Shown: positions 2,885 through 55,168, counted from the stretch's first letter. The stretch is DNA of 64,000 bases from Candidatus Harrisonbacteria bacterium (GCA_023244835.1 JAHFLN010000001.1:4912-68911); one strand, 5' to 3'. Numbers and translations are program-made. Notes: generated by a model from the sequence alone, not told the origin.

Positions 2885-4159
2885 CTAGAAGCTCGCGTCG
2901 TATTCGCGCACGATGAGCTGGCTGTCGATCTGCTTCATGGTTTCCAAGGCTACGGAGACGACGATCAGGAGTCCGGTGCCGCCGATCGAGAGGCGCTGTA
3001 TGCCCGTGATCATCTGCGTGAGGTTCGGGAGCACTGCCACGAAGCCCAGGAATACCGCGCCGAAGAACGTGATGCGGTTCAGAAGTTTCGAGAGAAAGGC
3101 GGTTGTGGGCTCTCCAGGCCTGATGCCGGGGATGAAGCCGCCTGCCTGCTGGAGGTTCTTTGAGATCTCCTTTGGGTCGAAGGTGACCATGGTGTAGAAA
3201 TAGGTGAAAATAACGACAAGCACGAAGTAGAAGGCGCTGTAGATGCCTTGGTTGTTGAACACGTAGCTCACCCAGTCGTTCACTTTCGCGGACCAGTCGA
3301 GCGAGACGATCGCGATGATCTGCGCGAAGAATTGCGGGAAGAGCATCACGGAGATCGCGAAGATGATAGGCATCACGCCGGCCTGGTTCACGCGGAGCGG
3401 CAGGTAGGTGGCGACGCCGCCGTATATTTTGTTTCCGCGTACGCGCTTCGCGTAAGATACCGGCACTTTGCGCTCCCCCTCGGTAACGAATACCACGGCG
3501 CCGATGATTACGACGCTCAATACGGCGAACGCGAGATAGGTCATGAGCACGGTCGGGTCATAGGTCGCGATCGCCGTCTGCAGTTCCTGGGGTAGGCGGC
3601 TTACGATGCCGGCGAAAATGATCAGGGAGACGCCGTTGCCTATCTTTTGTTTTGTAATCAGGTTTCCGATCCACACGAGCACCATGGAGCCTGCGGTCGC
3701 GATGATTACGTTCGTGACGATCGTATATATACCGAAATCCGTGAAGATTCCCTGGCGGTTCAGGAGGTTTAAGAGGCCATAGGATTGGAGCGCCGCGAGC
3801 GGGATCGTGAGATAGAGCGAGAGGCGGTTGAATTTTGCCCGACCCATGGCGCCCTCTTCGTAATAGAGCACTTTAAGGCTCGGGAAAACCATGGTCAGGA
3901 GCTGCATCACGATCGTTGCCGTGATGTAGGGGCCGACCCCGAGCATCACTATGGAGAGGTTGTTCAACGCGCCGCCCGAGAATACGTTTAGGAAGCCAAG
4001 CAGCTGGTTCGATGAGAACAGCTCGACGAGCCGCGCATGGTCGATGCCCGGGAGCGGGATATTTGCCATCAGGCGGAATATAAGAAGGAGGCCGGCGATG
4101 ACCCCGATCTTTCTCCGGATTTCCGGGATTTTGAATGCCGAAAGGAATCGGTCGAGCAT
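2885..4159 (-). CDS. secY: Preprotein translocase subunit SecY
   Basis: 424 aa polytopic membrane protein, SecY-like sequence, position after rplO. Confidence 0.93.
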   Translation of the reverse strand: MLDRFLSAFKIPEIRRKIGVIAGLLLIFRLMANIPLPGIDHARLVELFSSNQLLGFLNVFSGGALNNLSIVMLGVGPYITATIVMQLLTMVFPSLKVLYYEEGAMGRAKFNRLSLYLTIPLAALQSYGLLNLLNRQGIFTDFGIYTIVTNVIIATAGSMVLVWIGNLITKQKIGNGVSLIIFAGIVSRLPQELQTAIATYDPTVLMTYLAFAVLSVVIIGAVVFVTEGERKVPVSYAKRVRGNKIYGGVATYLPLRVNQAGVMPIIFAISVMLFPQFFAQIIAIVSLDWSAKVNDWVSYVFNNQGIYSAFYFVLVVIFTYFYTMVTFDPKEISKNLQQAGGFIPGIRPGEPTTAFLSKLLNRITFFGAVFLGFVAVLPNLTQMITGIQRLSIGGTGLLIVVSVALETMKQIDSQLIVREYDASF

Positions 4160-34223: not shown

Positions 34224-35429
34224 TTATTGCGGGGTGCTTGTCGCGGTAGTCGCGGCCATCATTTCCACCTTACCGCCCTTCACCACCTCGCCGCTGTAGC
34301 CGCTCTCGCGGTCGCCGTCCGGCTTGATCGTGATCGAGCCCGATGCGCCCTGCCAATCCTTCACGGTGCGGAACCAGTCCGCGAGCTTCGCGCCGTCGTC
34401 TCCCACGGCCATCAGGCCCTCTTTCGCCATATAAACGCCGTCGTACACGGTCTGGCCGTAGGACTTGAACGGCATATCAACACCGAACTTTGCTTTGTAG
34501 GCCTGATCCAATGCCGCGAACTTCGTATTCGCCGGGTCAACCGCGAATTCGGCCGCGAGCGCACCTTCCAAAATATCCTTGTATTTCTCGACCGTCGCGC
34601 GGTCGCCTACGAACGCCTCGTTCACGAGCATCTTCGGCTTCCACTTCAAGTCGACTAATTGCTTAATGACCCGCTCGCCGGATGCCGGCGTCTGCGCGTT
34701 CAGGAAGAGCGCGTCGGGCTTCGCCGCCTTTAACTTTGTAAGCATCGAGCGGAAATCGGTCGCGCTCGTCGGGAACTCCTCCTTCACCACCGTACCGCCT
34801 AATGCTTCGAACGAAGCGCTGAATGCCTTGAAGATGCCCAAGGGGTAGTCAAGCTGCTCCTGAATCATCGCGACCTTCTTCCAGCCTTTCGCGGCCGCGG
34901 CCTTCGCCAACACCTCGCCCTGCGTCGCGTCACTCGGATAGTCACGCACGAAGAAACGGCTCTTGCCCGTCAAGTCGGGACTGCTCGAGCCGGTCGAGAG
35001 CATGAGTACCTGGCCCGCCTCCGCGACCGGGATCGCCGCGAGCGATTCGCCACTGCAGAACCCGCCGAGAATGAAATGAACCTTGTCGACGTTTACCAGC
35101 TTCTGCGCCGCGCTCGTCGCGTCCTTACCGCTGCACTTACCATCTTCATAAATAACTTCGAGCGGCCGGCCATTTACGCCACCCGCGGCGTTGATTTCTT
35201 CAACCGCGAGCATGACGACGTTCCGCTTCATTTCCCCATATGACGCGCCATCGCCCGACAAGGGAGCGATGAAACCGATCTTAAGCGGCTCGACAGCCAC
35301 CGGAACCGTGCTCGTCGCGACGGTCTCCTCAACCGGCGCTTCAGCAGGCGCGCCGAGCATGGCGTACCCCGCCCATGCGACCACGCCCAACACGACGACC
35401 CATATAATAGCTTTCGCTGTAGTGTTCAT
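34224..35429 (-). CDS. ABC transporter substrate-binding protein, LivJ-like, TM-anchored
   Basis: Peripla_BP_6 pattern. Confidence 0.82.
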   Translation of the reverse strand: MNTTAKAIIWVVVLGVVAWAGYAMLGAPAEAPVEETVATSTVPVAVEPLKIGFIAPLSGDGASYGEMKRNVVMLAVEEINAAGGVNGRPLEVIYEDGKCSGKDATSAAQKLVNVDKVHFILGGFCSGESLAAIPVAEAGQVLMLSTGSSSPDLTGKSRFFVRDYPSDATQGEVLAKAAAAKGWKKVAMIQEQLDYPLGIFKAFSASFEALGGTVVKEEFPTSATDFRSMLTKLKAAKPDALFLNAQTPASGERVIKQLVDLKWKPKMLVNEAFVGDRATVEKYKDILEGALAAEFAVDPANTKFAALDQAYKAKFGVDMPFKSYGQTVYDGVYMAKEGLMAVGDDGAKLADWFRTVKDWQGASGSITIKPDGDRESGYSGEVVKGGKVEMMAATTATSTPQ

Positions 35430-35656: not shown

Positions 35657-36430
35657 ATGAATACATGGACTAAAAAGAGTATAGAACTGGCGCGTAAACC
35701 GGGATATTTAGATGCCTTGGGCGCTATTTATGTTATGAATATAAATCCTAGTAGACCACTAACGGAAGAAGTTGAGAAAAAAATACGAGAGGCTTTCCAT
35801 AATAGAAAAAATAAAGAGTTAGTTCATCTGTTAATTCAAAACGAAGTCTTTCCGGTCAAGGATTCTTATGTCGGATTTTTAAGACTTAACCCTGCGGCTA
35901 TTGATCAAAATCCGATAACTATCAATAGAATATCAGAAAGGCTTTACTCATTGGGGATTGAAGCACTTCTTAAGGAGGCAACTCGTCCTAAAGAGACAAA
36001 TCGTCAACTCGGACACTCATTCAAAAAATGGTTGCCTCAATTAGGTTATCCCGTACTTAATGTAGAAGAGTTTGCCAATACTCGAGGTGTGGCCATCCTT
36101 GCCGGTGGGGACGCACAACTTGCAAAATACGCTAGAGAGAAGTTGGGCTGTGAATTATCCAAAGGTATTGATTTTGTTTTAAAGAAAGGAAAGAATCATA
36201 TTATTGGTGAAGCTAAATTTCTTACAACTCCTGGAGGAGAGCAAGATCGAGGTTTTGATGACGCATCAAATTTTATTAAAGGAAAATTGCGCCCAAATGT
36301 GAAAAGAATAGCTGTTTTGGATGGCTATATCTGGGTAGAACGAACTGGTGGGCTCCACAATAAGATCGTGATGAACAACCTTGATATTTTTAGTGCTCTA
36401 CTCCTTCCCGAATATATTAAAAAGTTTTAG
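35657..36430 (+). CDS. Putative type II restriction endonuclease, PD-(D/E)xK-like
   Basis: AT-rich gene beginning 22 bp after the tRNA; candidate GIDFV...IIGEAKF catalytic motif; convergent with and overlapping the methyltransferase stop. Confidence 0.5.
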   Translation: MNTWTKKSIELARKPGYLDALGAIYVMNINPSRPLTEEVEKKIREAFHNRKNKELVHLLIQNEVFPVKDSYVGFLRLNPAAIDQNPITINRISERLYSLGIEALLKEATRPKETNRQLGHSFKKWLPQLGYPVLNVEEFANTRGVAILAGGDAQLAKYAREKLGCELSKGIDFVLKKGKNHIIGEAKFLTTPGGEQDRGFDDASNFIKGKLRPNVKRIAVLDGYIWVERTGGLHNKIVMNNLDIFSALLLPEYIKKF

Positions 36431-38187
36431 GTTGCAGAATAAACCTCAAAAGAAGCTTTTAATTTAGCTCCTTCTTTTTCTATAAGACTAATAGCATTTT
36501 TATTGAGGTCTATTCCTATCCAATTTCTTTTTAGTTCTTCAGCGGCTAGTAGAGTAGTACCCGACCCCGCAAAACAATCCAAAACCAAGTCGTCTTGCGT
36601 TGTAGAGCTCTGAATAATTTGTTTCAATAAGTCTCGATTTTTCTGTGTTGGGTAAAGAGAGCTCTCGAAACCAGGATCTTTAAAGTCCCACACGTCCTGA
36701 AGTTTCTTGCCTCGGTTTTCGTCTGCGTAGATTTTTTTTCGAGGATTCCCTGAACTAGACCACTCAATCAATCCTTCTTTATCTAGGCGTGTTAATTCTT
36801 CAGGGTTATATCTCCAATGCCTTCCTTTCGGTGGGAGCATGCCTTTCCATTCTCTGCCCGTAGGACCATTTCGTGTCTCTCCTTTAGCGTGAAGAGGTGT
36901 GGTGGCATACCTACGCCCTTTTTTGTCAATCTTGGGAAATTGTTTTATGATCTCCTCCTCAGTTAAGGCTATACGATGGTCCGTCCAAGACATTGGGTCA
37001 TGTCCATTTGGTTTTGATTTGGAATAAAAATATATTACATCTTTTATGTTCCCGAAAGCTTTCCTATCGAAATTTTTTGGATTACATTTTATTCTGGTAA
37101 TGTCATTTCTAAAATTTTCCTCTCCGAATACTTCGTCCATTAATACTTTTACATAATGTCCTATTTTCTGATCAATATGGAGGTATATGCTACCTGTTTC
37201 GGAAAGTAATTCTCTAAGAAGGATCAGTCTTTTTCTTAAAAACTCAAGGAAATCTGTGTTTGTAAGTTTGTCGCTATAAAAGTTTTCTTCGTTATAACCA
37301 ACAAAATCTTGCCCTGTACCAAAAGGTGGATCGATATAAATTAATTCGATATTGCCCTTTATATTTTTATTTTCATACAAATTCTTAAGAACACTGAGAT
37401 TGTCGCCTGCAATTAATTTATTTACAGACTTTGATCCATATTTCTTAGTAAGTTTAAGTTGAGCCGCTTTGATTTCAAGAACTTCTTCTTCCTTTATTTT
37501 TCCTCGATAAATCAACTCAGCTCCTCCTTTAGGACGACGTGCATGAGGAATCGTATGAAGAATATTTTCTGCTCTCTCCCTCTCGGAATATCTTTCGTTG
37601 GATTTAATAATATCTATAACTACACCTTGGATAGTTAACCGTTCAGGTTCAATAAAAAGAGGTAGCATTGTTTGGTTCGCAGGCTGTAGCCGTATCCTAT
37701 TTTTCTCCCTAAAAAACTTTTTAAGTGTGGCGGACTCCTGATCAATCAAAGCAACAACTTTTTGACCATTGTGTGCTACCGATTGACTCTGAATCAACAC
37801 AATGTCTCCATCGTTGATATTCTCATCAATCATACTATCGCCATACACACGTAGAGCGTAAACATCACTACTTTTAGGCATTTTCGATTTCGGGATAGCG
37901 ATTGTCTCCTTTTCTTGAATTGCTTCAATTGGCTCGCCTGCAGCAATAGTACCCAGGAGAGGAATGCTTACCAGGGGTTCGCCAGAGGAAATACTTATAG
38001 AACGTGCTTTATTTTCAGATTTATCCAAATATCCACTATCTCGTAGTTTGTTTATATGAAAATGTGCAGTAGAAACAGAGGCAAGTTTAAAATGCCTCTG
38101 TATTTCCTCTAAGGAGGGGGCATACCCTTTCTTTTTGGAAGACTCTTTTACGAAATCGAAGACCTCTTTTTGCTTTTTGGTGAGCAT
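36427..38187 (-). CDS. LexA-like repressor (HTH plus S24 peptidase) fused to beta-class amino-DNA methyltransferase (DPPF ... FAGSGTT)
   Basis: N-terminal ~205 aa align to LexA (IAAGEPI cleavage site, LRVYGDSM Ser, DGDIVLI, NGQKVVALID, TLKKF Lys); C-terminal motif IV IDPPF then motif I DCFAGSGTT. Confidence 0.8.
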   Translation of the reverse strand: MLTKKQKEVFDFVKESSKKKGYAPSLEEIQRHFKLASVSTAHFHINKLRDSGYLDKSENKARSISISSGEPLVSIPLLGTIAAGEPIEAIQEKETIAIPKSKMPKSSDVYALRVYGDSMIDENINDGDIVLIQSQSVAHNGQKVVALIDQESATLKKFFREKNRIRLQPANQTMLPLFIEPERLTIQGVVIDIIKSNERYSERERAENILHTIPHARRPKGGAELIYRGKIKEEEVLEIKAAQLKLTKKYGSKSVNKLIAGDNLSVLKNLYENKNIKGNIELIYIDPPFGTGQDFVGYNEENFYSDKLTNTDFLEFLRKRLILLRELLSETGSIYLHIDQKIGHYVKVLMDEVFGEENFRNDITRIKCNPKNFDRKAFGNIKDVIYFYSKSKPNGHDPMSWTDHRIALTEEEIIKQFPKIDKKGRRYATTPLHAKGETRNGPTGREWKGMLPPKGRHWRYNPEELTRLDKEGLIEWSSSGNPRKKIYADENRGKKLQDVWDFKDPGFESSLYPTQKNRDLLKQIIQSSTTQDDLVLDCFAGSGTTLLAAEELKRNWIGIDLNKNAISLIEKEGAKLKASFEVYSAT

Positions 38188-42694: not shown

Positions 42695-43615
42695 TCATCG
42701 CGTGCCGCGCAACGCGGCGATACGTTCCGCGACCGGCGGATGCGTGAGGAAGAGCTTCGCGAACCACGGAATCCCCTTCGCCGACCCATGGCGCGCATCC
42801 GCCTTGAACGGGCTCTCGAACCACAGGTGCGCCGTGCTCGCGCTCGCGGACTGTACCGCATGCGGGTCCGCCGAGATTTTCTCGAGCGCGCTCGCAAGAC
42901 CTTCCGGATAACGCGTAAGGAGCGCCCCCGAAGCATCAGCCAAGAACTCGCGCTTGCGCGAGATGGCGAGCTGGATCAGGGTCGCCGCAAGGGGCAGGAG
43001 AATCACGCCCGCGATCGCGAATATACCCGCTAAGGCATTGCGCTCGCCGCCGCGATCGTCCCGGCTCCTCATACCACCCCATATGAACGAGCGCGTCATC
43101 ATATCCGCGGCGATCGATATACAACCCACAAGTACCACAACAACGGTCGACACAAGCATGTCCCAATTCCCGATATGCGACAGCTCATGCGCGATCACGC
43201 CTTCGAGCTCGGGCTTGCCGAGCCGCGCAAGCAAGCCCGTGGTCACCGCGACCACCGCATGCTCGGGATTCCTACCCGTCGCGAACGCGTTCGGGGCCGG
43301 ATCATCAACGACATATATCTTCGGCACGGGCAATCCGGCCGCGATCGAAAGATTTTCGACGATGGCGTAGAGGCCCGGCGCATCACGACGCCCGATAGGC
43401 CTCGCATTCGCCATCCTCAAAACCAGCTTGTCCGAATACCAATAGCTCCCGACACTCATCAGAACGCTTAGTATGACCGCGATAACGAGGATCGCGGGAT
43501 TTTCAAAGTAGACTCCTAATGCATAGCCGAATCCGATAATGACGGCGAAAAAGACCGTGAGCAGAAACCATGTCTTGCGGATATTCGCATCCCTATGCCG
43601 ATATATGTCCATCAA
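42695..43615 (-). CDS. htpX: Zinc metalloprotease HtpX (M48)
   Basis: HELSHIGNWD HExxH motif; TM N-terminus; lemA partner upstream. Confidence 0.88.
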   Translation of the reverse strand: MMDIYRHRDANIRKTWFLLTVFFAVIIGFGYALGVYFENPAILVIAVILSVLMSVGSYWYSDKLVLRMANARPIGRRDAPGLYAIVENLSIAAGLPVPKIYVVDDPAPNAFATGRNPEHAVVAVTTGLLARLGKPELEGVIAHELSHIGNWDMLVSTVVVVLVGCISIAADMMTRSFIWGGMRSRDDRGGERNALAGIFAIAGVILLPLAATLIQLAISRKREFLADASGALLTRYPEGLASALEKISADPHAVQSASASTAHLWFESPFKADARHGSAKGIPWFAKLFLTHPPVAERIAALRGTR

Positions 43616-43618
43616 AAG

Positions 43619-44239
43619 CTAGAACTTCACCGAAACCGGCGCGCGTTCCGCATCAGAAAGCCCTTCGAAGAATTTCTCCGCACCGAAGCCGAACATTCCC
43701 GCAATGATATTCGTGGGGAAGGAATGCACCGCCGCGTTCAACTCCATCACCATCGCGTTGTAGAAGCGGCGCGCGGCCTGGATCTTGTTCTCGGTATCCG
43801 ACAGCTCGCCCTGGAGGCCCATGAACGTCGTATTCGCCTTCAGGTCAGGATAATTTTCCGCGACCGCGAAAAGCGACTTAAGCGTTCCCGAGAGAGCGTT
43901 CTCGGCGGATGCCCGGTCGATAGGGCTCCCGCCTCCCGCGACGCGCGAGCGCGCCTCGGTTATCTTTTCGAACACGCCGCTCTCGTGCGAGGCATATCCT
44001 TTCACCGTCTCCACGATATTCGGAATCAGGTCAAACCGGCGCTTCAGCTGGACATCGATGTCCGAGAGCGCTTCGTGCACGCGGTTACGCACCCGAACGA
44101 GCCCGTTATACGCGGCGACCACCCATAAGACAGCGACGAGCGCGATAAGCGGGATATTGAGAGACCAGCTGATCGCATCGAATAATCCGCTTATAACGAG
44201 CAGGATTATGACTACCCCTCCTATGAAGTTCCAGATCAT
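43619..44239 (-). CDS. lemA: LemA family protein
   Basis: N-terminal TM plus LemA-like sequence; classic lemA-htpX pair. Confidence 0.8.
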   Translation of the reverse strand: MIWNFIGGVVIILLVISGLFDAISWSLNIPLIALVAVLWVVAAYNGLVRVRNRVHEALSDIDVQLKRRFDLIPNIVETVKGYASHESGVFEKITEARSRVAGGGSPIDRASAENALSGTLKSLFAVAENYPDLKANTTFMGLQGELSDTENKIQAARRFYNAMVMELNAAVHSFPTNIIAGMFGFGAEKFFEGLSDAERAPVSVKF

Positions 44240-44271: not shown

Positions 44272-45954
<1,683 letters not shown>

Positions 45955-45966
45955 TCAGGGCGGATA

Positions 45967-46263
45967 TTACGACTCAAGGATCGCGAGGATATCCGCCTCG
46001 TCGGCAACCAAATACTTCTTGCCGTCAAGCTCGACCTCGTCCGGCCCGTATTTCTTGAAAAGCACGAGGTCTCCCACCTTCACGGACATCGGATTCAGCT
46101 CCCCTCGGTCATTCCGCTTGCCCGCGCCGACCGCGAGCACGCGCCCCTTTACCGGCCGTTCTTTTTCCGCTGTATCCGGCAGGACGATGCCTGATTTCGT
46201 CATGCGGTCTTCTTCCATGGCATCGAGAAACACGCGATCAGCAATGGGTTTTATGGTCATCAT
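45967..46263 (-). CDS. groS: Co-chaperonin GroES (as the C-terminal 98 aa of a 328 aa ORF)
   Basis: MMTIKPIADRVFLD...GKRNDRGELNPMSVKVGDLVLF typical GroES; no stop separates it from the upstream nucleotidyltransferase-fold region. Confidence 0.85.
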   Translation of the reverse strand: MMTIKPIADRVFLDAMEEDRMTKSGIVLPDTAEKERPVKGRVLAVGAGKRNDRGELNPMSVKVGDLVLFKKYGPDEVELDGKKYLVADEADILAILES

Positions 46264-46953
46264 AGTACCTAGGAGTATATCCTGTTTTTTCCCATGGTCA
46301 AGAGCGCGAACGCTTTCTCCCGGCGCTTTTTTCGGACGGAAGCACAGCTCGACGCGGCTTTCCGAAACGCTGATGCGCGATTCGCTTGACGCGCCGAATC
46401 GAATGCTCTGCGCCGCGATCCGGCGCTCCTGAATACGCCTCATGAGCGCTTCGCCCCAGGCGCCGAATGCGAAATCGAAGAGCGTCTCCGCGCACGCGAC
46501 AAGCGGGATCTTCTCCTTCCTATAGCGATATCTCACATTCGCGAATATCCCCTCGCGCATCGCCCCTGATGCCGTAAGGAATTCCCCAATCGCCTCCCGC
46601 GTTCCCACGACGGGCACGAGCGACGCGGCGAGGGCCCGTGCATACGCGTCCTCCGGCGCGTCGAGGCGGGCATCCGTCGCTATAAAATGATTCAGGCAAA
46701 AGCCTCTGCCGCGCGCGGCGATATGCGTACGGAGTCCGAGCAAACGGAAAATCCCCAAACAGAAAAAACGCGCCGTATACATACGGCCCGGCCGCGTTCC
46801 GACGATCACATCCCAGTCGGAATTCCTATGGGCATCGCCTGTCGCGAGCGATCCCGACACGAGCACTAAGTCGACGAAGGGGATCCACTCGAAGATCCAG
46901 ACCTTCCCGAGCAGGCCGTGCCATGCGTGGTCGAAAATTCCTTTTTGGTCCAT
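46264..46953 (-). CDS. Nucleotidyltransferase-fold domain ORF continuous in-frame with groES
   Basis: Pol-beta-type motif LVSGSLATGDAHRNSDWDVIV (G[GS]-x9-13-DxD); ATG at 46953 three nt after the rmuC stop. Confidence 0.5.
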
Positions 46954-46959
46954 CAGGGG

Positions 46960-48036
46960 TTATGACTCCCCATCCTGCTCCTCCGCTCGCGGCTTTTCAA
47001 GCAGCGTTGCCTTTATTCCGCTCGATTCCCCCGTCACCTTCAACACATCCTTATCGATCTTTCCGAGCTCTTTGTATGCGGTATTGTACGCGTTCACCGC
47101 AGTGCCAAGATGCGTTCCGATTTTTTCAAAGTAACCCTGATATGCCCCCAGATGCCTGTCGAGATCCTGCACGCGCCGAATGATTATCTCGATCTCCTTG
47201 TGAAGATGCTCGCGGCGTATACCCTGGATAACCGTCTGCAAGTATGCGAGAAACGAGGTTGGTGAGACGATCACCACCTTCTTGTCCTTCATCGCGTACT
47301 CTATGAGATCCTGAGCGCTCGCCGTACCCACGCGGTTTACCAAGAGGTCATAATAGATCGCCTCGGCCGGAATAAACATGAACGCGAAATCCATCGTATC
47401 CTCCTCCGGCCGGACATATTTCGCCGTCTCGTCGATGCGATTCTTCAGGTCGGTCCTGAACGCTTTCTCGAGCCGCGCGCGTTCCTCGCCGTCCTTTGCC
47501 TCGACCAGGCGGTTGTAATTCTCCAAGCTGAATTTCGAGTCGATAGGGATCACCTTCTCCTGATAGAAGACTGCCGCATCAACGATATCCCCGTTCTTGA
47601 ACGCGTATTGCATCTGATATTGGCCGGGCGGAAAGACATTTTTTAGGAGGGTTTCCAAGAGGTATTCGCCGAGTATCCCCCGCTGCTTCGGATTTTTTAA
47701 AATATCCTCGAGTCCCCTGATCTGCTCCATACCGAGCGCGACCTGCTTGTTCGTCGCATCGAGCTTCACGAGCTTTTCGGCAACTTCCTTCATCATGTTC
47801 GCGCTCGAAGCAAACTGGCCGTGCGAAAGGCGATTCGATTCCATAAGCTTTTCGTCGAGCGACTTCCGCAAGCTTTCATTCGCCCGCGCCAATTCGGCCA
47901 TCTGGGCCTGAAGCATCAAGAAGCCCTGCTCGGATGCCCGATCTTCCGGAACATCGAGCTTCTTCCTTATGAGTATGAATAACCCCGTGAAGCCTACAAT
48001 GACAATGACGGCGAGGACCCATGTGCCGGATATCAT
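46960..48036 (-). CDS. rmuC: DNA recombination protein RmuC
   Basis: N-terminal TM, coiled-coil, RmuC-like C-terminal domain. Confidence 0.8.
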   Translation of the reverse strand: MISGTWVLAVIVIVGFTGLFILIRKKLDVPEDRASEQGFLMLQAQMAELARANESLRKSLDEKLMESNRLSHGQFASSANMMKEVAEKLVKLDATNKQVALGMEQIRGLEDILKNPKQRGILGEYLLETLLKNVFPPGQYQMQYAFKNGDIVDAAVFYQEKVIPIDSKFSLENYNRLVEAKDGEERARLEKAFRTDLKNRIDETAKYVRPEEDTMDFAFMFIPAEAIYYDLLVNRVGTASAQDLIEYAMKDKKVVIVSPTSFLAYLQTVIQGIRREHLHKEIEIIIRRVQDLDRHLGAYQGYFEKIGTHLGTAVNAYNTAYKELGKIDKDVLKVTGESSGIKATLLEKPRAEEQDGES

Positions 48037-48107
48037 CCGTTCAGGATATGCCAGCCGGGCAAAAAAAAATAGACGGAGCCGTTCCGTCAGTAACCTATAA
48101 AAAAATA

Positions 48108-48282
48108 AACGGTTGTCGACCCATCATACCCCTCCCATGCGCTCGTGATCTTGGGCGGGCTCACGAAGGAAATAGCCGTAGCCTGCAAACAGATCGCATG
48201 TCCAGGACTTCAACGCATCGCCAAGACGATACTCTTTCATGGACGACGTGTGACCGTGCAGTGATGGGCCGACAAACCGTTT
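48108..48282 (-). ncRNA. Candidate structured RNA 1: 20 bp terminal helix enclosing ~130 nt, intrinsic terminator at 48061-48088
   Basis: AAACGGTTGTCGACCCATCA (48108-48127) pairs with TGATGGGCCGACAAACCGTTT (48262-48282); TTGACG-17-TAAATT promoter-like at ~48285-48315 on minus. Confidence 0.35.
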
Positions 48283-48345
48283 AACCTTATTAATTTACAT
48301 TAATGACTCCATCGCGTCAATATCCGTCCGCACTGGGCAAAAAAA

Positions 48346-48543: not shown

Positions 48544-49272
48544 TCAATGACAGCTCGGATCGGCGGGGTTGATTTCGCAGAGTTGTGACTTCACGACCGT
48601 GACGGTCTTCGGAATCTCCACTGACTGGCCCCCCGCATTACCGCACTTCAGAGTATAGGTCGTCGTGCGCGGCGGCGTTACCGTTACTCCGCCGGAAGAA
48701 GGATCGGCGAGCTTGCCGACCGTCGGCAGTATGCGACACTCGTCGGCATCCTCGCATTGCCAGGTGAGGCGCGATGTCTTCTGAGGCGATATGAGAACTT
48801 TCGGCCCCGCATTAAAGGAACAAGCGATGTCGAAAAGATGCGGCGGTTCGACAGGCACGATGCACTTCGCGAGAGAAACCTTATATGTCGGCCCGTTGAA
48901 ATGAAGCCACCCTACCACGTCAGATCCCCATGCATATCCCGAAAGACTGCATCCCAAAGCTTCCGTTCCCACGACTTTAGGTCCGTATGTCGCCCCCTTC
49001 AGCTTCACGATTCCGTCCCAGTCCCCGGAATTCGCGGAAATGACATTCGAGCAATCACCGCCCTCGGTTGCCGAGCAGACCCGGGCAGTATCCCCCGCAA
49101 GCTTGATCCACCCCACATTCTCCGACCATGCATATCCTCCGAACGCTCCCGTTTCCTCGTCTATCGTTGCCTGGTACCCGGGACCCGCAAAGCCGACCCA
49201 GCCGATATTTTCCGACCACGCATGGCCGGAGAGCGAGACGAGCGCGAAGAGCGGAACGAACAGAAATCCCAT
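48544..49272 (-). CDS. Secreted protein with three internal YAWSENIGW-type repeats and Cys-rich C-terminal region
   Basis: Signal peptide MGFLFVPLFALVSLSGHA; repeats GHAWSENIGWVGFAGP, GGYAWSENVGWIKLAG, SGYAWGSDVVGWLHFNG. Confidence 0.6.
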   Translation of the reverse strand: MGFLFVPLFALVSLSGHAWSENIGWVGFAGPGYQATIDEETGAFGGYAWSENVGWIKLAGDTARVCSATEGGDCSNVISANSGDWDGIVKLKGATYGPKVVGTEALGCSLSGYAWGSDVVGWLHFNGPTYKVSLAKCIVPVEPPHLFDIACSFNAGPKVLISPQKTSRLTWQCEDADECRILPTVGKLADPSSGGVTVTPPRTTTYTLKCGNAGGQSVEIPKTVTVVKSQLCEINPADPSCH

Positions 49273-49278
49273 AGGGAA

Positions 49279-49800
49279 TTAGCAGAATAATCCTCCAAAG
49301 CAGACTATGGTTTTCAACACATTTCCGGCAGTTCCCAAAAAGGTATCGCCCCCATCTCCTGCCGCATTCTGCTTGGTATAGAGCGCCTGCGAACACGGGG
49401 CGGGCGCAGTCGCGCCGCATGATTTCGGCTTCGAACTGATTTGGAGCGAGACAACTTTTATGCCTGTAAGTTGGCCGCCTGAACATTGAAGACCCACGGT
49501 CATCGCGAGGCCGGCCGCGCTCGAGCCGTCGCTCTTACAATCGCACTTCCAGCCAGTCCATGTGCATGACGATCCGGCTTCGAGCCATGACGCGCGCGTT
49601 TCCCCGCCAAGGGTTATGCTCGTAGCCTTCAGGTTATTTACCGTCAAATCGCCCGCCTTCACCTGCCTTCCCGATCCTACCGTGATCGGTGAGGGCGCAT
49701 TGTTCAAGGGCGGAAGCGCCGTCGGTTCGGTGAATGCTAACGCAACGGATGCGATGGCTGACATAGCTGCGATCCCCCCGATAAACAAAGATTTCTTCAT
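49279..49800 (-). CDS. Secreted Cys-rich hypothetical protein, paralog A
   Basis: Signal peptide ...ALA|FTEP; shared block with the next gene (SCxWxGWKCDCKSD, KSCGAxAPAPC, C-terminal CFGGLFC). Confidence 0.6.
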   Translation of the reverse strand: MKKSLFIGGIAAMSAIASVALAFTEPTALPPLNNAPSPITVGSGRQVKAGDLTVNNLKATSITLGGETRASWLEAGSSCTWTGWKCDCKSDGSSAAGLAMTVGLQCSGGQLTGIKVVSLQISSKPKSCGATAPAPCSQALYTKQNAAGDGGDTFLGTAGNVLKTIVCFGGLFC

Positions 49801-51714: not shown

Positions 51715-52347
51715 TTATTTCTGGATCGTCACCGGGAACGTATATGATTTCTTCCCCGTCGCCGTTCCCGTTATCTCCACCAATATTGAATAATCGCCGA
51801 GCTCTTTCCAGAAATGCTCGATTGACTTGCTCTCCCCCTTCTTCACCGAACCAGAAATCGCTTGCTTGTCCCCCCAATTCACCGAATATAAGAGATCCTC
51901 GACGTCCGCTCCTATAAGAAGCGAGAGATTTTGCTGGACGGGACGGACGATAGATACGCTCGATTGCTCGCCTAGAGTCCCAATCGGCACCCCTAAAACC
52001 TGTCCAAGCTCCTTCCTCGCGACCTCGATGCCCGCTTTCGTCATCTCGTTAGCGAAACCCGTTACGGCCTCCTTCGGCTTCTCAATAAGGAGTTCCATAC
52101 CTGATTTCACGAGCGATGCGCCCGCATCTTTCGCCGTCTGCGCATGACCCGGCGTCTGATCGAATAACTTCCCGATGCCTATGGAAAGCGATTCGCCGCT
52201 TATCGCGCGCGTCGCCTTCCCGATATCGAAGCCGGAATTCCAGAAATACCATATGCCGCCCGCGACGGCGACAAGAAGCACGAGATAGAGAATTCCGCCT
52301 CCTCCTTTCTTACCTCTCGACCGGCGCGGATATTCGTCGTCGTTCAT
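51715..52347 (-). CDS. Membrane-anchored hypothetical protein
   Basis: N-terminal basic region plus TM helix; first gene of the cluster. Confidence 0.5.
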   Translation of the reverse strand: MNDDEYPRRSRGKKGGGGILYLVLLVAVAGGIWYFWNSGFDIGKATRAISGESLSIGIGKLFDQTPGHAQTAKDAGASLVKSGMELLIEKPKEAVTGFANEMTKAGIEVARKELGQVLGVPIGTLGEQSSVSIVRPVQQNLSLLIGADVEDLLYSVNWGDKQAISGSVKKGESKSIEHFWKELGDYSILVEITGTATGKKSYTFPVTIQK

Positions 52348-54505: not shown

Positions 54506-55168
54506 CTACAGCGCGATCAGAATATCCTTCTTTCCTCCCGCAACCACATCGATCGGCATCATTTTTATAGATTCATTCGGAATGCCGGTGTCGTTCGAAA
54601 GCGTACGCACCTTTACCTCGTCGTACGCGATAGCCGCGAGCGATACGGTGAAGATATTCGTCACGGAACCTGCCTGAACGGGCTTATAACCGTCATAGAC
54701 CTGTATCCATCCGCCGTTCGCGTCGGCTACGCGATACGGATTATGCACGAAGATTTCGCGCACCGTTACCGCCGTAGGCGACGATACCGAGAACGACACC
54801 TCGCCCTTCCCTACCGCGGCCGGAACGGCTGTTCCCTGCGCAGGAGCTTCGGGCATCGAAGGAGAGACCGCTTCTTCCGCCGGACCCGCGCCCGCAGGCG
54901 GCATGGTGTCTAGAACATCGGCCCCGGTCGATGTCGCTTCCTCCGCCGCCTCGGTCGATGTCGAGACTGCTTCTTCCGCCGCCGGCATGCCAGCAGTCGA
55001 TGACGACATGAGAAGCTTAACCCCTACGACTACGATTACGAGCACCAGTATGACTATGGCGAGATTAGTGCCTGCCTGACCCTTATCCTCTTCAGGAGCC
55101 TTATGCTCCCCATAGTATGACGCGCCATTACCCACCCGATTTCCCTGCTCCGATCCTATTGGTTCCAT
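54506..55168 (-). CDS. Membrane-anchored hypothetical protein with Ala/Glu/Pro-rich linker
   Basis: TM helix then low-complexity linker and C-terminal beta-rich domain. Confidence 0.5.
   Translation of the reverse strand: MEPIGSEQGNRVGNGASYYGEHKAPEEDKGQAGTNLAIVILVLVIVVVGVKLLMSSSTAGMPAAEEAVSTSTEAAEEATSTGADVLDTMPPAGAGPAEEAVSPSMPEAPAQGTAVPAAVGKGEVSFSVSSPTAVTVREIFVHNPYRVADANGGWIQVYDGYKPVQAGSVTNIFTVSLAAIAYDEVKVRTLSNDTGIPNESIKMMPIDVVAGGKKDILIAL

Follow-up and report, generated by a model that had tools for sequence, protein, structure and literature searches.

Genes that yield nested products in one reading frame are known from Escherichia coli ClpB (93 and 79 kDa), IF2 (alpha and beta) and CheA (CheA-L and CheA-S) and from gene 4 of phage T7 (4A and 4B), and in this type the internal start is served by a ribosome-binding site on the same mRNA. 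In Cpn20, an additional folded domain lies N-terminal to a Cpn10 domain, and the protein remains functional with Cpn60/GroEL (PMC5904260). Leaderless genes carry a published signature of TA-like boxes about 10-12 bp before their start codons (PMC3160421). Literature searches returned nothing specific on fusions of a nucleotidyltransferase (NTase) with GroES, on rmuC-NTase pairs, or on leaderless genes in Patescibacteria. The locus described here lies in a 64,000-nt stretch of DNA from Candidatus Harrisonbacteria bacterium (GCA_023244835.1 JAHFLN010000001.1:4912-68911), the whole of which is referred to as the window, and its features are listed in Table 1.

Table 1. Positions of the features of the NTase-groES locus in the window.
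Feature	Coordinates	Strand	Remarks
rmuC, 358 aa	46960..48036	-	Pfam RmuC assigned; immediately 5' of the NTase ORF
Whole fused ORF	45967..46953	-	identical gene in L001 and L002; six fused homologues (P0002-P0006, P0009)
Pol-beta-superfamily NTase-like domain	46327..46953	-	aa 1 to about 209
NTase signature G34-S35 ... S45-D46-W-D48	46810..46854	-	matched by MNT and minimal-NTase profiles
Linker codons, aa 210-230 (21 codons)	46264..46326	-	former intergenic DNA, in frame
-35 hexamer TTGACC (predicted)	46296..46301	-	read as xTT GAC Cxx; same in 7/7 fused loci
A6 run at the junction	46285..46290	-	inside the promoter spacer; not conserved
-10 hexamer TATACT (predicted)	46274..46279	-	16-nt spacer; 10 nt to the groES ATG
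groES proper, 98 aa	45967..46263	-	ATG 46263-46261; further ATG 46260-46258
groEL, 549 aa	44272..45921	-	45 nt 3' of groES; no Shine-Dalgarno

One continuous reading frame through an NTase-like domain, a linker and GroES

A single continuous ORF of 328 aa encodes an NTase-like domain, a linker and GroES. The preliminary description of this DNA had reported a 328-aa ORF with a 98-aa GroES at its C-terminus and no stop codon between the two parts, and both statements are borne out, the first by the ORF list, Pfam and NCBIfam and the second by the minus-strand sequence. The Pfam Cpn10 profile (PF00166) matches aa 234-325 at an E-value of 2e-28 over profile positions 2-92 of 93, a full-length match that scores 98.7 bits against a curated cut-off of 21.1 and is the single Cpn10 match in the ORF in the Pfam search. 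NCBIfam GroES models cover aa 230-328, with the subfamily model scoring 104.1 against a cut-off of 96. The GroES start position is constant in all loci compared, and groEL follows immediately 3' after a 45-nt gap, as expected of a Cpn10 gene.

The linker is predicted to be disordered, with pLDDT below 50 for aa 208-237 in a full-length AlphaFold model that was built from 8 sequences, is of moderate quality (pLDDT 65) and was used for linker disorder only. The peptide that spans the junction of the fused ORF is QDILLGTMMTIKPIADR, and the N-terminal peptide of free GroES is (M)MTIKPIADR. Two details of the preliminary description require correction. The whole feature is encoded by the minus strand, where the junction string, given as 46258-46296, occupies 46293..46258; and the NTase start, placed 3 nt past the rmuC stop, is separated from it by a gap of 6 nt (CCCCTG) between the TAA (ORF end 46960) and the ATG at 46953.

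An NTase-like domain of an uncharacterised family

The minimal-NTase signature that had been called in the N-terminal part is present (LVSGSLATGDAHRNSDWDVIV, aa 31-51) and takes the form hG[GS]-x(9-13)-Dx[DE], with G34-S35 followed by D46-W-D48, but the domain extends over about 209 aa and its Pfam scores are sub-threshold, at 19.1 against 21 bits for NTP_transf_2 and 17.0 against 26.9 bits for Polbeta. Most relatives tested likewise fall below the thresholds of these two profiles. In a 64-sequence alignment of the family, S35, S45, D46 and D48 show no variation and G34 almost none. An AlphaFold model of the domain generated from this alignment has a pLDDT of 93.2, and the predicted structure has the NTase core fold, with Foldseek matches to MntA, AadA and HalB; the family profile matches MNT antitoxin sequences at an E-value of 2.7e-5. 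The strand at aa 85-92 (GFCLNHFI) carries no conserved D or E and a third catalytic carboxylate is not evident, E156 and E168 being nearly invariant but situated in the helical part. On the basis of the model, the domain is a Pol-beta-fold NTase-like protein; its family is uncharacterised, and no closely related structure has been solved.

An identity as MntA, the antitoxin of the type VII (MNT-HEPN) system, was considered and rejected. The neighbours are rmuC and groES, with no HEPN toxin gene; the domain has about 209 aa against the 100-140 aa or so expected; and it scores 18.4 on the NCBIfam equivalog model, whose cut-off is 60. PADLOC gave no meaningful match for the NTase domain. In the same resource, rmuC matches the RmuC part of a DRT model.

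Linkage to rmuC and neighbouring genes

The NTase-like gene is directly preceded by rmuC in 7/7 fused loci, in the partial locus L012 and in three of the unfused loci that extend far enough upstream, L010, L016 and L021. The gaps between the two genes range from -8 to +41 nt, and the exceptions to the linkage are L015 and L019. This distribution suggests that rmuC and the NTase-like gene constitute an uncharacterised functional module across Parcubacteria.

Several observations concern the surroundings of this pair. The pair occupies 1179-2980 in L010, 1135-2920 in L016 and 1956-3648 in L021; in L010 it has no adjacent groES and is followed by an integrase. Just 5' of rmuC in the window, a terminator-like hairpin with a T9 run lies at 48072-48088 (-), and downstream of the hairpin a TATCCT box lies 6 nt before the rmuC ATG, so that rmuC-NTase may itself begin a leaderless operon. 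Upstream of rmuC are two ORFs of 242 and 173 aa (48544-49272 and 49279-49800, both -) that have N-terminal hydrophobic segments and no Pfam match on record. The two ORFs are syntenic in L003 and L005 (242 aa with 173-181 aa), and L018 has two ORFs of comparable length (240 and 195 aa) at the same place upstream of rmuC. On the other side of the locus, lemA and a gene for an M48 (HtpX-like) peptidase come after groEL (43619-44239 and 42695-43615, both -), an order also seen in L005, and L015 carries an M48-like peptidase upstream on the opposite strand. From its gene order, the groEL-lemA-M48 neighbourhood may be a conserved proteostasis cluster.

The fused clade and the origin of the fusion

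Homology searches recovered six further fused proteins of 321-328 aa, all with Cpn10, whose N-terminal parts are 78, 75, 59, 54, 52 and 52% identical to that of the window, which gives seven distinct fused proteins in total (52-100% identity in the NTase part). Homologues separate cleanly by identity: those of 42% or less are all unfused and 172-248 aa long, and those of at least 52% are all fused in frame, so that the comparison with the groES loci of close relatives, proposed in the preliminary description, upholds the fusion. A 21-nt linker indel among the relatives leaves the reading frame intact in codon alignments. A profile of the N-terminal domain matched 4344 proteins, 1895 of them at an E-value of 1e-10 or below, and among the best 150 of the 4344 only the representative of the fused clade runs beyond the C-terminus of the domain, the other members ending at about profile position 206-214.

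A search with a 6-sequence alignment yielded one partial locus in genome contigs (L012, at a contig end) and five loci in metagenome contigs. The one named genome match is a 'Parcubacteria group bacterium' MAG, and several of the related contigs originate from Hainich groundwater. Among the sequences recovered, the fusion is confined to a small group of groundwater Parcubacteria.

In more distant relatives, the order (rmuC)-NTase-groES-groEL is found with separate genes in L015, L016, L017 and L021, the short contig of L017 ending before groEL. The NTase of L015 ends in ...LCFKLKTINL-stop and is followed by a 90-nt spacer and groES; that of L017 ends in ...LCFRLRKLKD-stop and is followed by a 260-nt spacer and groES. 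In L016, rmuC and an NTase ending in ...LWFRPRA-stop are followed by an additional 161-aa ORF and then groES, and in L021 (Ca. Paceibacterota) rmuC and the NTase are followed by a 33-nt gap, groES and groEL. The ORF that lies between NTase and groES in the outgroup L016 (3018-3503) is highly basic. Unfused homologues end shortly past an ...ELCFRPK-like motif: the NTases of these loci stop 3-7 residues past LCF or LWF and, in L021, 14 residues past the equivalent EFH.

Given that these distant Parcubacteria show the same gene order with separate genes, the ancestral state, as judged by this comparison, is one of separate genes, and the fusion is derived, both the stop codon and the spacer having been lost. 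Orthologues encoded separately from groES had been named beforehand as evidence against a fusion. Such loci do exist (L015, L016, L017 and L021), but at distances of 34-41% identity only; they show how the genes were arranged before the fusion, which in this clade still stands.

A predicted groES promoter inside the linker

A consensus scan of 45800-48300 returned one sigma-70-like site only, TTGACC-16-TATACT at 46301..46274 (-), which agrees with the consensus at 10/12 positions. The -35 hexamer TTGACC is the sole invariant run of at least 6 nt in a six-gene codon alignment of about 990 columns. The -10 hexamer reads TATACT, TATGCT or TATAAT in the seven fused loci, and both the 16-nt spacer and the 10 nt from the -10 hexamer to the ATG are identical in all seven. 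The codon whose first base is the final C of the -35 hexamer specifies H, P, R or Q across the relatives, and the codons of the -10 hexamer specify D/N/A, I/M and L/I/M, with the hexamer positions T, A and T..T fixed. As the encoded residues vary and these hexamer positions do not, it is the DNA that is under constraint, not the peptide. Third codon positions are conserved at 0.84 in the linker, compared with 0.63 for the NTase domain and 0.67 for GroES.

Unfused relatives possess a corresponding site, which reads TTGACA-18-TATAAT-10 nt-ATG in L015 (12/12 consensus) and TTGACA-17-TAGAAT-10 nt-ATG in L017 (11/12); the distance from the -10 hexamer to the ATG is 7-8 nt in L021 and L016. The junction is predicted to be the conserved sigma-70-type promoter of groES itself, a feature that had been missed in the preliminary description.

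In L021, the TGA that ends the NTase gene forms part of the -35 hexamer (TTGACA) of its groES promoter (3640-3684), and a CIRCE element with one mismatch (TTAGCACTC-N9-GACTGCTAA) overlaps the promoter spacer and the -10 box. No CIRCE was found in the window (up to 3 and up to 4 mismatches) or in any fused locus (up to 4), nor did the CIRCE search find one in L015-L017. A terminator-like hairpin inside the NTase ORF (46787..46772) was attributed to chance, five such sites being present in the scanned region versus 2.4 +/- 1.8 expected.

A proposed near-leaderless start of groES

Within the window, -10-like boxes lie 5-11 nt before the ATG of 25 of the 72 long ORFs, versus 6.7 +/- 2.4 at random positions, and Shine-Dalgarno-like 4-mers are modestly enriched (13 versus 6.3 +/- 2.3). 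Leaderless transcripts therefore seem, by these counts, to be common in this Parcubacteria genome. Examples of TANNNT boxes are those of the ORFs at 36427-38187, 49279-49800, 51715-52347, 34224-35429 and 54506-55168, all on the minus strand.

The modal distance from box to ATG in the window is 6 nt and that of groES is 10 nt, and so a leader of 3-4 nt is assumed and the gene is not regarded as strictly leaderless. A -10 box that ends 10 nt short of the ATG would place the transcription start 3-4 nt before that codon, too close for a Shine-Dalgarno sequence to fit. A weak Shine-Dalgarno is to be expected in such a near-leaderless context, and the weak AGGAT stretch to which attention had been drawn at the junction is uninformative; groEL and most genes in the window are likewise without one.

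Selection on the domains and on the open frame

The dN/dS ratio is 0.10-0.43 for the NTase part, 0.03-0.14 for GroES and 0.44-1.25 for the linker, with synonymous divergence lowered in the linker and saturated in the NTase part. As estimated from these substitution ratios, both domains show purifying selection and the linker peptide does not. All of the known clade members (7/7) are open and in frame across the linker. The sole informative indel is a multiple of three, an outcome with a chance probability of 1/3.

The open frame was compared with a neutral simulation (Jukes-Cantor, neighbour-joining tree, both promoter hexamers frozen), in which the probability that all 7 tips are stop-free is 0.01-0.09 at the 4-fold-site rate and 0.05-0.21 at the slower rate of the linker itself. 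The result is free of ascertainment bias, because the same searches would find unfused close relatives and none were found. Selection to keep the frame open, with P of about 0.01-0.2 among seven sequences that share ancestry, is suggested but not decisively so.

Two probable nested products from one frame

The locus is likely to consist of nested in-frame units, an autonomous promoter for groES-groEL and read-through of the NTase gene into groES. The presence of a conserved promoter in the junction implies that groES is probably still made as a separate protein, and that this ordinary GroES is probably produced alongside some NTase-GroES fusion. The 'fusion' is more aptly viewed as an otherwise autonomous groES into which an upstream gene reads across a promoter.

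Such an arrangement would have arisen when the NTase gene of the clade ancestor lost its stop codon and a spacer that is present in 3/4 unfused relatives. Transcription of groES-groEL would proceed from the TTGACC and TATACT hexamers (46301-46296 and 46279-46274), starting about 7 nt past the -10 box and 3-4 nt before the ATG at 46263, and the 98-aa GroES, together with GroEL, would be translated from a leaderless or near-leaderless mRNA with a leader of at most 4 nt. Ribosomes on the rmuC-NTase transcript would translate the promoter region into a linker of 21 residues, predicted to be disordered, continue into groES and release a second, longer product, the 328-aa NTase-linker-GroES protein. 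We infer the use of the promoter, the transcription start and the accumulation of the long protein from the sequence.

The tolerance of Cpn20 for an N-terminal domain makes co-assembly of the long form into GroES rings plausible, and the long form would join GroES heptamers through its GroES domain, with its NTase domain outside the lid. Carrying so bulky a domain at its N-terminus could be detrimental to an essential co-chaperonin, and the long form would then be expected at low levels. It is about equally likely that the long form does or does not have its own function. A more specific proposal, which is unlikely, is that a selected long isoform in mixed heptamers with free GroES tethers an AMPylase-like NTase outside the lid. 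GroEL or its clients would then be modified, or the rmuC-linked enzyme would be brought to the folding machine, and the strength of the promoter would govern the proportion of lids that bear the enzyme.

An obligate fusion, in which the promoter-like site is unused and GroES is made only as the C-terminus of the 328-aa protein or by internal initiation, is improbable. The lack of both a stop codon and a Shine-Dalgarno before groES agrees with an obligate fusion, as does the frame kept in 7/7 fused loci, but the -35 and -10 hexamers are conserved as nucleotides despite varying amino acids and the unfused outgroups have the same promoter at the same distance. An obligate fusion would also leave groEL reliant on the promoter of the rmuC operon, and seven 230-aa appendages per lid seem sterically costly.

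Slightly less probable again is the proposition that the NTase part is no more than a remnant, decaying or unexpressed, that GroES alone is of consequence, and that the long ORF is an artefact of gene calling by longest ORF. Gene callers always take the longest ORF, the Pfam matches of the NTase part are sub-threshold and the linker is without amino-acid constraint, all of which a remnant would explain. It would not explain why the dN/dS of the NTase part remains at 0.10-0.43 over saturated synonymous divergence, why S35, S45, D46 and D48 are invariant and G34 nearly so, why the domain yields a confident model (pLDDT 93), or why its tight linkage to rmuC is maintained.

The A6 run at the junction

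Nested units with an autonomous groES promoter also account for the region of the A6 run, on which two of the three readings in the preliminary description depended. None of the six fused relatives has the full A6 run at 46290-46285, which is missing or shortened in each of them and specific to the lineage of the window; in codon alignments, the position reads GGGGAAAAAG, GAGGCGAAAC, GAAGGGGAAG, TCAGGCAAAG and ACGGAAAAAC in relatives. A further A6 run (46332-46327, -) forms codons K208 and K209 at the end of the NTase domain and is common to L003, L005 and L018 but not to L006, L008 and L009.

Programmed frameshifting on the A6 run, by which the ratio of short NTase to long fusion would be set, is very improbable. 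The run is potentially slippery and the -1 frame meets a TAG 14 nt downstream, which would yield a peptide ending in ...HGKNRIYS. However, a run that is missing or shorter in all six relatives is not conserved as a programmed slippery site, the zero frame is the open and conserved one, and the region is already explained as promoter spacer.

The 987-nt gene is identical in L001 (ENA, megahit) and L002 (Logan), gene calls on four contigs give exactly this 328-aa protein, and L001 differs from the window at 3 positions elsewhere and at none within the gene. In short-read assemblies, a homopolymer of 6 nt is an untypical failure point. A check of the frames around the run confirmed that loss of one A brings a TAG at 46271-46269 into frame, 5 nt before the groES ATG, so that the suspicion of an indel was a fair one. 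The least probable explanation of all, an assembly or sequencing indel in which a true A5 at 46290-46285 ends the NTase at this TAG and leaves a separate groES, would provide a tidy stop right before groES and would resemble the separate genes of distant orthologues, but it is opposed by the same gene from other assemblers (megahit, Logan), by the exact protein on four contigs, and by six diverged relatives that lack the A6 and remain in frame, one group of them across the 21-nt indel. Of the three readings originally offered, the continuous fused ORF is the only one that survives.

Implications

The locus provides a clean gene fusion, phylogenetically dated, that proceeded through loss of a stop codon and a spacer. 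Its linker peptide would be encoded by a promoter that is still conserved, making this a dual-use DNA constrained as promoter and not as protein. Two warnings for annotation follow: GroES is called as a 328-aa protein in these genomes and the upstream enzyme goes unnamed, and promoters that abut start codons appear to be common in this Parcubacteria genome. The locus also points to a conserved, uncharacterised rmuC-NTase pair beside groESL in Parcubacteria. If the long form enters GroES rings, it would be a natural display of an enzyme on the chaperonin lid, and if the unlikely case of a selected, tethered NTase were true, it would be the first natural co-chaperonin to carry an enzyme.

Comparison with known systems

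The nearest known NTases are the minimal nucleotidyltransferases (MntA antitoxins) and the adenylyltransferases of the ANT(4')/KNTase type. As in groESL operons under HrcA/CIRCE control, groES and groEL here have a promoter of their own, as predicted; unlike those operons, the window and the fused loci have no CIRCE, whereas the unfused L021 has one. In common with TA-led leaderless genes (PMC3160421), groES has a TANNNT box about 10 bp before its start and no Shine-Dalgarno. It differs from those genes in that its putative promoter lies inside a translated upstream ORF and that a leader of 3-4 nt, not none, is predicted.

The Cpn20 of chloroplasts and apicoplasts resembles the fusion as a co-chaperonin with a folded domain N-terminal to Cpn10. 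The extra domain of Cpn20 is a second Cpn10, whereas that of the 328-aa ORF is an unrelated enzyme-like domain beside one Cpn10, and a tandem co-chaperonin of the Cpn20 type, which needs two Cpn10 domains, was rejected on the single match. Cpn20 has neither an internal promoter nor a separate short product, both of which are proposed for the fused groES.

Nested isoform genes are like NTase-groES in having one frame, one C-terminus and a shorter product from an internal ATG. The short product of NTase-groES, in contrast, would be that of an ancestral, autonomous gene with its own predicted promoter, the DNA of which doubles as linker codons. The locus is thus a combination of known kinds: a stop-loss gene fusion, in-frame nested genes and leaderless promoters.
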